DNA of 20,000 nucleotides from Parvularia atlantis (lineage: Eukaryota). Below the pieces are notes generated by a model that saw nothing but the letters and a program-made list of their open reading frames with translations, searched no databases and was not told where the DNA came from. Positions 12,659 through 20,000 of the stretch are shown here, one piece after another (position 1 is the first letter of the stretch; the number at the start of each line of letters is the position of its first letter). A program made the translations under genes and the position numbers. The DNA is taken from positions 50,304-70,303 of the forward strand of contig CALSCO010000711.1 of NCBI GenBank assembly GCA_943704415.1, in the 5' to 3' direction.

Positions 12659-12839
12659 GGCTGCTGCTTTCGGCGCGCGCGGACGGCGCCGTCCGCACGG
12701 TGCGGGAGCGGAAGGGGCGGCCTGTGCGTGTGTCGCGATGAGTGAGTGGGCGATAGCGGCCCAAAAGCAGGCAGGCGGGAGCGGGCGTGCGCGCGGTCGA
12801 CCCGCTGGTCGTTCGGCGCGATGCAGTTAGTGTGCGGGC

Positions 12840-14655
12840 ATGATGGACAGCGCGGCTCTGGACGAGACCGGCGACTCCACCGACAAGCGGCCGCTGCTCC
12901 TCGGCGAGAGCGCGAGCACGGACGCGAGCATCAACGCCGGGCCGCCGGGTGGCGCCGCGCAGGACGGCGATCACGTGACCAGCCTGCGCGACGTCGCGTG
13001 GCTCGCGCTCGCGTTCCTCTTCCTGTTTTCGGCGTTCACCGTGACCCAGGTGCGGACGAAAGCGACCACCCCGCGCGCCCGCCTGCCTGACCCTGCGAGT
13101 GCGCCGCTGCAGAACCTCGCCTCGTCGATCTTCGTCGGACAGGTCGGCTTCTGGAGCCTCGGGACGCTCTACATCGTGTTCGCGGTCGTCAACCTCGTCG
13201 CGAGCAGCATCACACGCGCGCTCGGGCTCAAGTGACGTGCCGCCCTTCAGCCGCCGCAGCGCACGCCTGACCCGCTCCGCGGCGCAGGTGGGCGCTCTTC
13301 CTCGGCGCGAGCACGTACGTCTGGTACGTCGTGGCCAACGTGATCGCGATCCGCAACGGCGACAGCGAGCTGGTGCAGTACGCGGTCATGATCCCCTCGG
13401 CCGCGCTCCTCGGCGCCGGCGCGGCGACGATCTGGACGGCGCAGGGCGCGTACGTGACGTACTGCTCGAGCACGGCCGACCTCGGCACAGCCAACGGCCT
13501 CTTCTTCTTCATCTTCATGGGCAACCAGATCCTCGGCAACGTCGGCGCGGCCGTCCTGTTCACGCTGAGCGTCAAAGTGGTGCGCGCGTGCATGGCCGAC
13601 GCCGCTCCCCCGGCCGCGCTCAGCGCCCGCTCGTGGCCGCAGGAGCTCGTGTTTGAGATCTTGGCGGGCGCGGGTGGACTCGGCCTGCTGCTGTTCCTGT
13701 GGCTGCGCGCCGTCGAGCGCGCGCCCGCGCCAAAGAGCCTGGACGACGTCGAGCCGCCGTCGCGCTGGCACACGCTGCTGGAGGTGCGGCGGCCTCTGGC
13801 GGCGCGTGCGGCAAGCCGCTGGCTGAGCACCTGTGCGCTGTACGCGCAGGTCGTCATGCTCATGGGCGACTGGCGCATGGTTGCGCTGATCCCGCTCATC
13901 GTCTACTCGGGCATCACCCAGACGTTCTTCGCGGGCAACATTCCGCTGTTCATCAACGACTACAAGGGCGACGGCAAGTGCACGCAGGACCTGGCGATCA
14001 AGCTGGTGCGTGCGCAAAACCGCTTGAGCTGCCCACTGACGCGTCGCAGTACGTGATGGCGTGCCTCGGCCTCGCCGCGTCGCTCGGCTCACTCGCCTTT
14101 GGCAAGCTGTCCGACCGGCTCGGGCGGCTGCCCGTGCTGAGCCTCGCGGGCGTGCTGCAGCTCGTGGGTGCGTGCATGTGTGCCTGTGTGCCTGTGTGCG
14201 GGTTGCTCACGCGTGCCGCGACAGCCTACTTCCTGCTGTACTTGATCGACCCGCGCAACCGCCTCGAGGTGCTCATCCCAACGGCGGTGCTGCTGGGCCT
14301 GGGCGATGCGATTATAAACACGCAGTCGTACGGCATCCTCGGCTTCCTCTTCCGCGACCGCTCCGAGGCGGCCTTTGCGACGTTCAAGTTCTTCCAGTCG
14401 GGAGCGACGGGCGTGCTCTTTTTCCGTGCGCGGTCTTCTTTGCCCAGCAGCGCTGGTGTGGGCTCACAGCGCCGCCGCCGCTCAGTGTCAGCGTTCCTCG
14501 TCGTCGTCAGCGGGACGTGTCAAGCGGCCGAGCAGAACTCGTCACCCGCGATGGACGTCTGGCTGCCGGTCCTGCTCGTCGCGCTGGGCGCGTCGGTCGT
14601 CGGCCTGGGCGTGCTGCGCTGGCACCGCGCGCCCATTGACGCCGTGTCTACATGA
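12840..14655 (+). CDS. UNC-93-like MFS membrane protein (UNC93A/MFSD11 family); 8 exons
   Basis: Spliced motifs FLFLFSAFTVTQNL, GFWSLGTLYIVFAV, LGLKWALFLG, LLGAGAATIWTAQGAYVT, FGKLSDRLGR, LLGLGDAIINTQ, AAFATFKFFQS, with about 12 hydrophobic segments. Confidence 0.88.
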
Positions 14656-14691: not shown

Positions 14692-16607
14692 CTACTGCTG
14701 CGGCTGCCGCTGCTGGAGACGCGAGATGAGCGCCTCCCAGTTGATCGGCCCCAGCCCGCGCTTGTGCACGACGAGGCTCAAGTCCATCTCGGGCACGTTC
14801 TCGTCGCGCGCTGCCTCCTCGTGCTCTATGTCCTCCCACGCGATCGCGCGCGCGTCTGCGATTAGCGACGCGAGTGTCGGCGACACGGCTCGCTCCTCGA
14901 TTGGCGGCGCCGGCGCGGTCGGGACGAGCCGTGGTGCTTCGATGACTTCGTCGTCGTCGTCGTCCGCGTCCTCAAACTCCGGGCGCCGCCGCTTGGACGT
15001 GGGAGGCAGCGCGACGGCGAGCCCGCCGCAGACGGACGCGGATCGTCGCGCGGGGCGCGGTCGCGGCCCCGGCTCAGCCGACGACGGGTTGCGCACCCAG
15101 AGTGGCGGCACCTGCGCGACACGGCGTGAGCGGCATGGGACGCGTGCGGCACGGCCCGGCGCGCACGGGGCTGATGTACTGGCGGAAGTGGCGCGTGACG
15201 TCGGCGAAGCGGTCTGGCACGATCGGCACAATCTCGCTCGGCTTGAGCCGGCGCACAAACTCGGCCATCTCGGCGAACGACGAGTGCAGCGAGTACGACA
15301 CGACCTGCGGCGCAGTCATCAGGCACGCAACACGCGCACGCGCACACAGGTCGCGCGCACGTGCATGTGCGGCGACGAGAAGGCCGGCGACTCGCCGCCT
15401 AGGATGTACTGCACACACGAAGGCAGGATGGCCACGGTCGGCGAGCCCTCACGGTTGCGCGCCTCGAGCCTGCGACGCGGTCCGCGCGTGTGAGAAACCC
15501 TCCCTTCAGCGCTACGGCGCGCGCGCACATGGCCGCGGTGACGAGGTGCTTCGGCAGGCAGTGCATGCGCGTCGCCGTGTAGTCGTCGGTGAAGTGCGCC
15601 AGCGGCAGGCCGAGCAGGCGTAGCGCCTCGAGCCGCCGCGGCGGCACGGCGACGGGCACGTCGCACTGCTGCGCCAGGTGCACCAGCAGCTCCTCCTTGC
15701 CGAGCGTGTCGACGGCTATGACGACGGTGGCGCCACGCGCGAGGTGCTCACGCGCGATCGCCGCGGCCTGCTGCGCCGCGACCTCCTGTGCGTGCGGACG
15801 GCCCCGCTCAGCAGCGCTCCCCGGCAACCAGCAGCCCCGCACTCGCGACGGCATGGTGCAGCGCGGGTCGCAGTACGTGTTGTCGAGGTAGAGCCGGTCG
15901 ACGTGGATCGACGCGAGCACGGTCTCGTCGACCATCGCCGGGTGGTAGCTGCGCGCCCGTCAGGCCCCGCGCGGGCGCAACGCGGGCGCGCGCACCGGAA
16001 GTCGCCCGTGTGCACGATCGTCCCGAACGCGCCCTGGAACACGAACATGACCGCGCCGGGGCAGTGGTTGGCGGGCACGAGCGTCACGGCCATGGTCGAG
16101 CGGTCCTCCTGCTGGTACTGCGCACGGGCGTGCGCCGCTGTCGTGAGCACGCGCGCAAGGCCACCTCTCGCGCGGCGTGCGCACGTAGTGCTGCCGCGCG
16201 ATGGCCCAGGCCGTGGCGCGCGCATCGGACGGCCCGTCGCGCAACAGGGAGACCGTTACGGGCTCGTTCTCGGGCAGGGCGTGCTTGCGCCGGGAGGGGG
16301 AGCGTGAGCGCGGGGGCGCCGGCGCATCGCTGCAGCCGCGCACCACCAGCGACGCATCGAAGCCCGCAAACTTGTGCAGCAGCAACGCGCGCGTCGTGGC
16401 CGAGCAGAGGATGCGGCCGCGGCGCCACCTGGGCGAGAGCCCGCTCGTGTGATCTGCCCCCCTTTCCGCATCAGCACGGGAGCCGCCGAGCGAGCGCGCG
16501 CGCCCCGCATCACCCTCGTGCAGGTGCGACAGGAAGAACAGGTGCACGTCGCCATCGCCGCCGTGGAACGCGTCGACCGCGACCGGCACCGTGACGTGCA
16601 GCCGCAT
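14692..16607 (-). CDS. DCLRE1B: SNM1-family metallo-beta-lactamase/beta-CASP 5' exonuclease, most like Apollo/SNM1B; 9 exons
   Basis: Spliced motifs [20 protein letters not shown] (HxHxDH), [49 protein letters not shown]. The catalytic domain begins at the N-terminus, unlike SNM1A; the paralog assignment is tentative. Confidence 0.85.
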
Positions 16608-16658
16608 CGGTTGCTGATTGGCTCTGATTGTCCCTTGCGATCTCGCCCGCAAACGGCC
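16608..16658. promoter_or_regulatory. Putative 51-nt bidirectional promoter with a CCAAT box
   Basis: Lies between divergent ATGs at 16607 (-) and 16659 (+). Contains CTGATTG twice (GCTGATTGGCTCTGATTGT); the first copy reads AGCCAATCAG on the minus strand, the NF-Y consensus. Confidence 0.55.
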
Positions 16659-19600
16659 ATGACCGCCGCCGACGCCGCCGCCGACGCCGACGCCGCGCCC
16701 GGCCCCGAGAGCAAGGACAGCCTCGCGCTCGACGTGACCAACGTCGCGCTGGGCCCCGAGGACGGCGCGCCCAGCTCGCCCCGCGACGGTGCGCGCACCC
16801 GTTCAACGCGGCTGCGCCCGGTTGACCTGCCGCACAGGCGACGAGGTCGACAAGGACTCGGCCTCGACGCGGGCGCACGTCGACGCGGGCAGCGACACGA
16901 GCTCGGTGCGTGGCCCGCCGCCGCCACCGCCTGCTGCCCGTCCGCGGCTGAGCCGCCTGAGCCACGCCCGTGCCGCCAGAGCCTGTCCAACTCGACCGCG
17001 GGCGCGTCAAGCGTGCACAAGGGCGTGCGACGCATCGCCCAGCGCATCGGCTACTCGCCGGCCTTCTCGCAGATCCGCCTGCAGGTGCCGACCGGCGCCC
17101 GCGCGCGCGCCTGTCCCGTGGCTCACGCGGCGCCCGCAGCGCGCGGTCGGCCTTGTCCCGCTCGTCCTGCTCACGCTCGGCGGCGTGCTCGACGGCGAGT
17201 ACTCGGGCTGGAACTTCGGCTCGACCGGTGCACGCGCGGGGCGCGGCGTACACGGGGATGGCGCACAGGCGCTGACGGCGGGCGGGGCGGCGCACACAGG
17301 CGGCGTCGGCGGGCTGCTTGCGGCGTTCCTCGTGATCTCGCTCATGTACGCCTGCTTCGTCAGCTCCCTGGCCGAGCTCGCGTCCGTGTTTCCCTTTGCC
17401 GGCGCGAGCTACGCCTACGTGCGCGGCACGATGGGCAAGTTGCCCGGCCTCCTGGTCATCCTCTGCGACATCGCCGAGTTTGTGATCGGTGCGGGTGCAC
17501 CTGCGAGAAGCAGCATCCGCTGAGCCTGCGCGCCGCACGCACAGGCGCCTCGGCCACGACGTTCACCAGCGGCGTCCTGCTCGGGCAGCTGTTCTTCGAG
17601 GGCGCGCGGCCGGAGCTGGACGTGCTGTGGGCGTTCCTGCTGGCTGGCTGCATCACGTCGCTGATGATCTTTGGCGGCACACGCCTTTACCAGGTGCGCG
17701 ACCTCGCGCTGCGCTCGGGCGCCCCTCACAGTGCCCACAGGTCATCTCTTCGCTGACGGGCGTGGCCCTCGTTGTGCTGTGCGTCTGGATCTTTGGCGGC
17801 TTCCACTTCATCAGCTTTTACGCCAACGCGCTCGCGCCGGTCGCACCCCCCGCCGGTCCGCCGTGCCTGCCTCGCCGCATGTCACGTCTTGACAGACTGT
17901 GCGCGCGCAGCCGACTCTTCTACGGAGCCGAGCGCGACCGAGCTTTGGTTCCCGCTGGGCGTGCCGGGCTTCTTCGTGAACCTGACGTTCGCCATCTGGT
18001 TCTACCTCGGCCTCGAGATTGTGCCGTTCGTGGCAGAGGTGTGCGCGCGTGGCTGCTGCTGCGTGTCCCGGCGCTGACGCCGCTCCCGCAGGACGTGCGC
18101 ACGCCGAGCCGCGTGGTGCCGCGCGCGCTGCTCATCTCTTTCGGCGTCCTGTTTGTCTTGGCCATCCTGACGCTCTTTGTCGGCGTGGCGCTGCCGCCGG
18201 GCATCGTCGTGCTGGTGCGTCGGGCCGGTCGGTGGTCGTGCACGTCGCGCTGACGGCTCCCGCGCGCAGGCGATCGAGAGCCTGCCGATGAACAGCGGCT
18301 TTGCGTTCATCTTCAGCACAGACAGCCTGCGCCTGTCAGCTGCGCTGCAGCTGGCCTCGTTCATCATCGGCTCCGCGGTCTTCCTCTTTGCCGGTCAGCA
18401 TGGCTGGAGGCGTGCACGCGGCGCCGCTTACCCTGTGTGCGCAGGCGTCCGCGCGCTGTTTGCCGCCAGCCGCGCGGGCTTCCTACCGCCATTCCTGTGC
18501 TTTGTCTACGGGCGGGCGGACGTGCCCGTGGGCTCGATCCTGTTTGCGAGCCTCGTGATGTACCTGGCCGTGCTCGTGAGCGCGCTGCCGAGCGACTCGA
18601 GCTCGTCCGAGGTGCTCATTGCCATGACCACGATCGGCACGGTGCGGTCAACGGCCACGCGCGTATTGCAGCGGCTCATGCGTTGCTCGCTCTCGCACGC
18701 GCAGCTCGTGTCGCAAATATTCAAGATGCTCGCGTTCATCATCCTGCGTGTCAAGTACCCGCGCGCCGTCCTGCACCGGTGCGCACGCACGCGCGCGCGC
18801 CCCGCCCTCGCCGTTCTCACGTAGGCGTGCATGCGTAGGCCGTTCTACAGCCCGCTGGGCATCGCGGGCGCCGTTGTCGCGCTCGTGCTCGCGGCCATCG
18901 CGCTCGTGTGCATCTTCGTCTACCAGAGCTCGTCGGCCCAGGCGGCGTACGCGCTGCTGGGCTTCGCGCTGTGGATCATCCTGGGCGTGCTGTACTACGC
19001 CTTTGTCGGACGCAAGCGCCTGTTCCTCAGCCCCGAGGAGCTTGCGGCGGTGCAGCTCAACTACCGCGACAACATTGAGCTCGTCCAGCGGCGCGTGCAG
19101 CGCGAGGCGCCGCTGCAGTTTGATGAGGTGTGCCGCGCCGCTCTCGTCTGCGCGTGCTGTGCTGACGGGCGTGTGCGGCGCAGATCGGCGCCGACTACTT
19201 CCGGCTGACGCAGGTGCTGCACGACCCCGTGCGTGCGAGCCTGTTTGAGGCGTATCTCAAGCAGATCTTCTGCCACGAGAATCTGCTCTTGTGCGTGGGG
19301 GGCGCGGGCCCGCGCACATGCCGCTCACACCAGCGTACAGCCACCAGGAGGTCGCGCACATCCGGCGGCTGGCACCGAGCACGGCGCAGCCAAAGTACCG
19401 CGCGGCGTGCATGCGCGTCTATGCCACCTACCTCGCACCCAACTCGGTCCTGCAGGTCAACATCACCGGGCCGGTGGCCGTGGACATCAAGGCGCGTGGT
19501 GCACACGCGTGCGCTTGCGTCTGAACCGCGCCCGCGCCTCCCTCCAGGTCGCGCTCGACAGCCAGGCCGACATCCCGCTCGACATCTTTGACAGGGCCGA

Positions 19601-19781
19601 CGCCGAAGTGCTGCACATGCTCAGCTACGGTGCGCGGGCACGCTGGGCTGCTGCGCGCGGCCCCGCCCACACGCGCGCGCCCTTGGCCCCAGACTGCATG
19701 CGCAAGTTTGAGGAGGCCGAGGCACAAGCGCGCAAAGCCAACCGCCCGCTGCTCTCGTCCTCGCTGGTCTTCTCCGCCTGA
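16659..19781 (+). CDS. APC-superfamily (ethanolamine/amino-acid permease-like) 12-TM transporter fused to a C-terminal RGS domain; about 17 exons
   Basis: Permease motifs LGGVLDGEYSGWNFG, LMYACFVSSLAELASVFPFAGASYAY, FAIWFYLGLEIVPFVAEDV, RALFAASRAGFLP, RPFYSPLG continue in frame into VLHDPVRASLFEAYLKQIFCHENLLF, VYATYLAPNSVLQVNI and IFDRADAEVLHMLSYDCMRKF (RGS signature). Confidence 0.88.
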
Positions 19782-19818
19782 CAGCCGCATGTCCAATCAT
19801 AAACCCGCTAGCATACTG

Positions 19819-19951
19819 CTACAACGCGTCAGACTCGCCGGTAGCACTCAGCCGCACGCGCGACGCGACCGCGCGCTGCGCCGCAGCCACGATATCGTCG
19901 GACGCGCCTAGTGCGCGCACAATGTCGGCGACCGGGAAGTCCTCGATATAG
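19819..19951 (-). CDS. Terminal exon of an unidentified gene entering from the right edge
   Basis: Minus-strand CTGAC branch site and GGCAG acceptor at 19952, followed by YIEDFPVADIVRALGASDDIVAAAQRAVASRVRLSATGESDAL and TAG at 19821-19819. Confidence 0.6.
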
Positions 19952-20000
19952 CTGCCGTGCACGCATCGCCGGCGTCAGCAGGCCCCCCCCCCCTCCCCCC

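Follow-up and report, generated by a model that had tools for sequence, protein, structure and literature searches.

Background

The closest described systems are the 7TM-RGS proteins, in which a polytopic membrane part is followed by a C-terminal RGS domain. Examples are AtRGS1 and the 28 7TM RGS proteins described for Naegleria fowleri (PMC9283941); proteins of this type are also described in PMC3386157. For AtRGS1 a derepression model has been put forward (PMC8584482), and the RGS domains of the Naegleria proteins are reported to act as GAPs (PMC9283941). Not every RGS domain has GAP activity, and the domain combines with many unrelated partners in a lineage-specific manner (71 architectures, PMC3971589).

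Here we describe a gene from Parvularia atlantis in which an RGS domain follows a permease of the APC family. The gene lies in a stretch of 20,000 nucleotides that was analysed as a whole (the window). Like the 7TM-RGS proteins, its product has a polytopic membrane part with a C-terminal RGS domain, and for both a nutrient input to G-alpha without a GPCR is proposed. Its membrane part differs from theirs: in place of seven helices it has the 12-helix fold of an APC transporter, with a defined site for binding. Filing it as a 7TM-RGS protein was rejected because of these twelve APC-type helices, although it may still work like one.

The yeast APC-family transceptors Gap1 and Ssy1 are carriers proposed to signal besides, or in place of, transport. 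To our knowledge neither has a fused signalling domain, and both signal to other pathways. In the gene product, by contrast, carrier and output domain share one chain, and the output would be aimed at G-alpha.

With Eat (TIGR00908) and the Eat-like amine permeases the gene product shares homology over the full length, the GWN motif in TM1, the SPEE motif after TM12 and two inner acids. In contrast to bacterial Eat it is eukaryotic and intron-rich, retains 59 of 115 conserved columns and carries a 171-residue tail with the RGS domain. The nearest solved fold to the Eat-like domain is GkApcT (5oqt, 6f34).

Gene structure and transcript evidence

Positions 16659-19781 of the plus strand form a single gene with 17 exons and 2208 coding bases, encoding 735 amino acids without internal stops (ATG at 16659, TGA ending at 19781). 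The window has a GC content of approximately 70% and is intron-rich. The 16 introns of the gene measure 47-74 bases each; 15 are of the GT-AG type and intron 15 is GC-AG. Its features are:

16659-16788, 16838-16905, 16980-17084, 17140-17227, 17300-17488, 17545-17693, plus strand: exons 1-6 (exon model and RNA joints)
17741-17855, 17911-18038, 18092-18214, 18270-18393, 18445-18641, 18705-18778, plus strand: exons 7-12 (exon model and RNA joints)
18839-19127, 19184-19290, 19341-19491, 19548-19629, 19693-19781, plus strand: exons 13-17 (exon model and RNA joints)
16659-17084, plus strand: exons 1-3, low-complexity N-terminal tail (residues 1 to about 94) and basic stretch up to TM1, predicted to be cytosolic
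17152-19004, plus strand: Eat-like APC permease domain with 12 helices, residues 106-552 (helix positions taken from the structural model of P0001, a bacterial relative)
19005-19204, plus strand: linker of about 48 residues, comprising the Eat post-TM12 motif and a helix and running on to the RGS domain, without Met or stop
19128-19183, plus strand: intron 13, the permease-RGS junction (phase 0, GT-AG; X1 joint)
19205-19709, plus strand: exons 14-17, RGS domain, residues 601-712 (Pfam hits of exons and alignment through P0144 to 1agr_E)
19492-19547, plus strand: intron 15, inside the RGS domain (GC-AG; exon model and X1 joint)
19710-19781, plus strand: C-terminal tail of 23 residues and the stop codon (exon model)

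Exons 1 and 3 match no convincing Pfam family. GC3 is 0.98 over codons 1-100, 0.92 in the permease part and 0.89 in the RGS part.

Four sequencing runs (X1-X4) cover part of the stretch. The label of X1 as RNA is a guess, but the exact excision of the introns demonstrates processed RNA. All 16 introns are seen as joints in one X1 contig of 3776 bases, of which the listed pieces show 0 letter differences to the window. The initial annotation had placed permease and RGS in one continuous spliced frame with a phase-0 intron at 19128-19183, and both statements hold: splicing connects exon 13, with TM11, TM12 and the greater part of the linker, in frame to exon 14, where the RGS domain starts, which is direct evidence for the fusion, and the runs contain no transcript that ends before about 19100 with RGS expressed separately. 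The X1 contig also covers the divergent upstream gene and extends beyond 19952. Because it spans both neighbour genes, the whole contig is by itself no proof of one full-length mRNA.

Of the remaining runs, X2 and X3 cover only small shares. X2 has one joint, at intron 2 (depth 2), and stops short of the permease-RGS junction. X3, which stops short of it as well, contains an identical unspliced piece across intron 1 (16709-16905) that represents DNA, pre-mRNA or intron retention. One unspliced X4 contig (18397-19997) contains the junction with 0 differences; X4 may be the window's own source.

The GC donor of intron 15 was missing from the first reading of the gene. Frame and domain spacing are preserved only with the GC donor at 19492, and the X1 joint (19489/19546) skips 56 bases, equal to the skip of this donor. 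Four nearby GT donors were rejected: they skip 74, 68, 52 and 49 bases against the 56 of the joint.

Methionine is absent between residues 480 and 653, and a separate, whole RGS would therefore have no start codon; a separate RGS gene was rejected for this reason. Retention of intron 13 would yield a 619-residue product without RGS. As the X1 evidence consists of contigs, which lose rare isoforms, such a permease-only form may exist at low abundance. Taken as a whole, permease and RGS are almost certainly one protein.

Neighbouring genes

A divergent gene on the minus strand has its start codon 51 bases from the ATG of the gene described here (16607-16659). Since the X1 contig crosses this gap without interruption, the two genes seem to share a promoter and to overlap at their 5' ends. 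Five introns of this neighbour are seen spliced. Pfam scans of three of its unspliced frames gave no match; its exon motifs are, we assume, those of SNM1/Apollo-type beta-CASP nucleases. Downstream, a convergent minus-strand frame ends near 19830. The X1 contig enters this frame and leaves the window sequence at 19952 (19781-19952), so that this frame and the gene described here probably overlap at their 3' ends. Further upstream, 12750-14655 of the plus strand holds an UNC-93-like MFS gene (PF05978, E 1e-12 and 2e-14 in two frames).

The permease domain

A complete APC carrier region is formed by residues 95-575. The best NCBIfam family is the ethanolamine permease TIGR00908 (E 7.6e-13 on 17140-17487). 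It is the top family in two of the five permease pieces scanned, with 48.1 and 19.6 bits; these scores stem from a gene scanned in pieces, relative to a curated cut-off of 381.75 that bacterial P0001, adjoining eutB, approaches with 371.7. On 17140-17487 alone PF00324 reaches 26.1 bits (cut-off 24.6). Residues 95-572 score 323.6 bits on a profile that we built from 53 Eat-like proteins, whereas four other APC proteins reach 107-117 bits on it.

Scanning metagenome contigs with exon 13 led to one locus (L001), a bacterial permease gene directly before eutB that encodes P0001; the gene model is 31% identical to it over 484 columns. In the Atlas, exon 13 matched mostly unnamed clusters, plus one AA_permease cluster. 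The structural model of P0001 has a pLDDT of 93.6 and GkApcT as best Foldseek match (E 5e-17), and its 12 helices map onto the 12 hydrophobic segments of the gene product. The twelve helices that had been annotated at about 17140-19010 can thus be placed at 17152-19004, and by homology TM1 and TM6 are predicted to be broken.

GkApcT itself is a 12-helix protein whose N-terminus lies in the cytoplasm (PMC5803215). Lysine and arginine number 19 in the seven segments predicted inside and 1 in the six outside loops. Homology to P0001 and GkApcT together with this charge bias predicts that both termini are cytosolic, in line with the C-terminus annotated before, and that the RGS domain would face G-alpha.

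A quick tree, built from 61 rows after exclusion of 3 that were partial or redundant, places the gene product inside the Eat-like group (SH-aLRT 99). The identity first assigned, an APC permease of the ethanolamine-permease group, is supported. Within this group it clusters with four eukaryote-type proteins (SH-aLRT 98); it has the longest end branch (4.85), and such long branches make the grouping unsure. The source labels only one of these four, P0093, as eukaryotic.

Columns conserved in 56 Eat-like rows were counted for each protein. The gene product keeps 59 of 115, compared to 78-82 of 119-121 for the four eukaryote-type relatives, 90-114 of 115-118 for five bacterial rows and 38-39 of 115 for three unrelated APC proteins. 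This drift of the permease is suggestive of a changed role, as would be expected of a sensor.

Two groups of permeases were also noted. P0030, P0086, P0093, P0084, P0041, P0046, P0061 and P0008 form an Eat-like group of eukaryote type in which SPEE is followed by an additional hydrophobic stretch; a literature search on ethanolamine permease and eukaryotes returned no paper on it. P0139, P0142 and P0143 are APC permeases of 834-886 amino acids that also contain PF00465, PF13685 and PF25137, which we take to be iron-containing alcohol dehydrogenase families.

The substrate site

Three acids of the permease could be located by alignment to GkApcT:

17197-17199, plus strand: Glu121, where TM1 is unwound, equivalent in position to GkApcT Gly44 (suggesting an amine-type site)
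17476-17478, plus strand: Glu190 in TM3, equivalent of GkApcT Glu115
18015-18017, plus strand: Glu317 in TM6, equivalent of GkApcT Asp237

In GkApcT the backbone of Gly44 binds the carboxyl group of the substrate, and Glu115 and Asp237 are both required for transport (PMC5803215). The gate aromatic of TM6, Phe231 in GkApcT, is Trp311 in the gene product. Since Glu121 occupies the carboxyl-binding position of Gly44, the substrate would be of the amine type: an acid at this site probably favours a small primary amine over an amino acid. The position holds Asp or Glu in many, not all, Eat-like proteins. There may be a parallel with monoamine transporters.

The initial annotation named an amino acid or ethanolamine as substrate. 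An amine-type permease is retained from this, an amino acid has become less likely, and the amine is not necessarily ethanolamine. Three bacterial Eat-like loci were inspected: one lies before eutB (P0001), one before a glutamine-synthetase-like gene with a peptidase C26 nearby, and one beside a short-chain dehydrogenase. Judged by these three gene contexts, the bacterial relatives do not all appear to serve ethanolamine. Ethanolamine was rejected as an established substrate.

The RGS domain

The RGS domain is divided over four short exons, which were scanned singly. Exon 14 matches RGS (PF00615) at model positions 2-29 (E 0.07-0.09, 13.7-14 bits), and exon 15 matches RGS-like PF09128 at positions 49-84 (E 0.07-0.27, 11.4-13.4 bits). 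The two weak matches are colinear. Each is the sole family match of its exon, and both lie below the curated cut-off, which is 23.9 bits for PF00615. Exons 16-17 gave no Pfam match in single-exon scans. PDB sequence searches with the RGS exons returned nothing usable. For exon 15 the Atlas held no usable match and no viral relative was found; its single-sequence model has a pLDDT of 59, and the Foldseek search with it was uninformative.

To test the domain as a whole, a reference RGS was sought among other sequences. PF00615 was not found in sets of 2 and 401 bacterial genomes, nor in 4 virus records, and three-motif DNA patterns gave no RGS candidate. Two-motif patterns gave 226 DNA loci in viral contigs with 22 open in-frame candidates, one of which is a true RGS (P0144, locus L036). 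P0144 passes the Pfam cut-off with 49.5 bits and matches 28 solved RGS-family sequences. Residues 625-718 of the spliced domain, to which all four RGS exons contribute, can be aligned to P0144 25-108 at a score of 77 and with two gaps. Shuffled sequences average 26.9 with a maximum of 58, and 0 of 5000 reach 77. Masking the motif residues used for selection lowers the score to 44, a value that 1 of 5000 shuffles reaches, and the 21 motif-bearing decoys picked by the same motifs score at most 34. These results support the RGS domain that had been annotated at about 19200-19715 and is now placed at 19205-19709.

Identity to P0144 amounts to 24 of 84 aligned residues, and a Tyr and an Arg of P0144 are replaced by His630 and Lys711. 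The domain is divergent, not fully canonical. Three contact positions can be assigned:

19280-19282, plus strand: Asn626, aligned to P0144 N26 (RGS4 Asn88)
19459-19461, plus strand: Asn669, aligned to P0144 N62 (RGS4 Asn128)
codon split by intron 16, plus strand: Asp707, aligned to P0144 D97 (RGS4 Asp163)

The RGS4 numbering follows from alignment of P0144 21-103 with 1agr_E 83-169 and holds if the four-residue gap sits as in RGS16 alignments. In this way Asn669, the asparagine of QVNI that had been equated with RGS4 Asn128, takes that position through P0144. RGS4-type Asn88, Asn128 and Asp163 are described as contacts critical for GAP action (PMC8252600). The three kept contacts would allow GAP activity, and we consider it likely that the protein is GAP-competent.

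The 278-kb viral contig that carries L036 encodes, at L230:736-1845 of the plus strand, an intron-less protein of 369 amino acids. Its N-terminal part is hydrophobic, and an RGS domain is located at its C-terminal end (Pfam E 6.7e-13). This viral protein resembles 7TM-RGS; other viral relatives were not found.

Distribution of the fusion

Relatives of the permease were scanned for an RGS domain. The 84 permease proteins found via exon 13 gave no RGS hit (28 scanned at E 0.01 and 56 at E 0.001), PF00615 occurred in none of the 59 proteins obtained with a eukaryote-weighted profile (which scored the best 7998 word-sharing candidates), and the RGS part matched none of 143 permease relatives. In the 128 relatives with the post-TM12 motif the tails measure at most 140 residues and lack RGS, against the 171-residue tail of the gene product. 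Word-based homologue searches with single exons, which constitute weak evidence, found nothing. The 143 relatives are mostly bacterial or fragments, and the absence among them indicates rarity, not uniqueness.

Similar outcomes were obtained from the literature. The initial annotation knew of no characterised APC-RGS fusion, and none appears in the literature searched. AA_permease occurs in none of the 71 RGS architectures listed by de Mendoza et al. 2014, of which the main text does not contain the word 'permease' (PMC3971589). Figures S6 and S7 of that paper do show two transporter-containing RGS architectures and nine RGS proteins with 11-15 predicted helices; these nine are counted there and unnamed, and one of them could be an unrecognised APC-RGS protein. 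Within this literature the APC-RGS pairing appears to be new. The principle of a membrane sensor with RGS is less so, because such fusions are common in protists.

Possible functions of the fused protein

The reading that we tentatively prefer is that of a membrane-bound GAP for G-alpha, whose output would depend on a small amine that the permease binds or carries. The RGS domain under the membrane would keep a G-alpha off, and occupancy of the permease site by the amine would change the access of the RGS domain to G-alpha. Coupling might proceed through the helix following TM12. Alternatively the substrate might cause the protein to leave the membrane, a mechanism that has been proposed for AtRGS1. 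If the protein is indeed GAP-competent, coupling to the ligand is reasonably probable. A more specific version seems doubtful: here the Eat-like domain would have become a sensor of amines, and the fused RGS would be gated directly by the alternating-access movement of this domain.

A first alternative is that the two functions are uncoupled: the permease carries its amine and anchors a constitutive RGS GAP at the membrane. The transport-critical acids and the gate aromatic of TM6 (Trp311) are kept, and the retention of Glu190 and Glu317 would be just as expected of a normal, active carrier. RGS domains are found fused to a wide range of unrelated partners that differ between lineages (PMC3971589), and no conserved APC-RGS family was found among the relatives. 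On the other hand, about half of the columns conserved in the family are lost, which is more than in any relative tested, and the short linker prolongs the conserved helix after TM12. Both points are no more than suggestive, and all together we regard a simple anchor as possible, though on the unlikely side.

Alternatively the signal might run in the reverse direction, or the RGS domain might serve for non-catalytic docking: activated G-alpha would bind the protein and control uptake or trafficking of the permease, which makes the protein a G-protein effector. Precedents exist, as some RGS domains have lost GAP activity and serve as scaffolds (PMC3971589) and RGS-RhoGEFs are effectors of G-alpha (PMC9283941). 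The divergence of the domain (24 of 84 residues identical to P0144) would fit such a role, but the equivalents of Asn88, Asn128 and Asp163 are all identical here, and we judge it rather improbable.

Finally, it is very improbable that the fusion is an artefact or minor product (an assembly or read-through joining of two genes, or a decaying fusion of which the permease-only form is the real one): although junction splicing comes from one run (X1) of contigs that lose rare isoforms, the X1 contig spans three genes and retention of intron 13 would give the 619-residue permease-only protein, the intron at the junction is canonical, keeps the frame and is spliced from the exon with TM11-12, the junction lies within the unspliced X4 contig 18397-19997 with 0 differences (X4 may be the source of the window), a separate RGS lacks a start codon, and GC3 is 0.92 in the permease versus 0.89 in the RGS part, with no stop or frameshift.

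Conclusions

Summarizing, the gene and its architecture are solid, and the signalling role is inferred from one gene in one organism. Through the fusion, a nutrient might adjust signalling by G proteins with no conventional receptor involved. In APC carriers the binding pocket and the gate residues are known, and uptake is simple to assay; as a result the fusion offers a candidate class of ligands (small amines), ready mutants and two readouts in one protein, which makes it unusually testable. It would tie the transceptor idea to heterotrimeric G proteins by a covalent link. If the version with an amine sensor that directly gates the RGS is true, heterotrimeric G proteins would have an off-switch that is controlled by a ligand and independent of GPCRs, and whose binding site is understood structurally.
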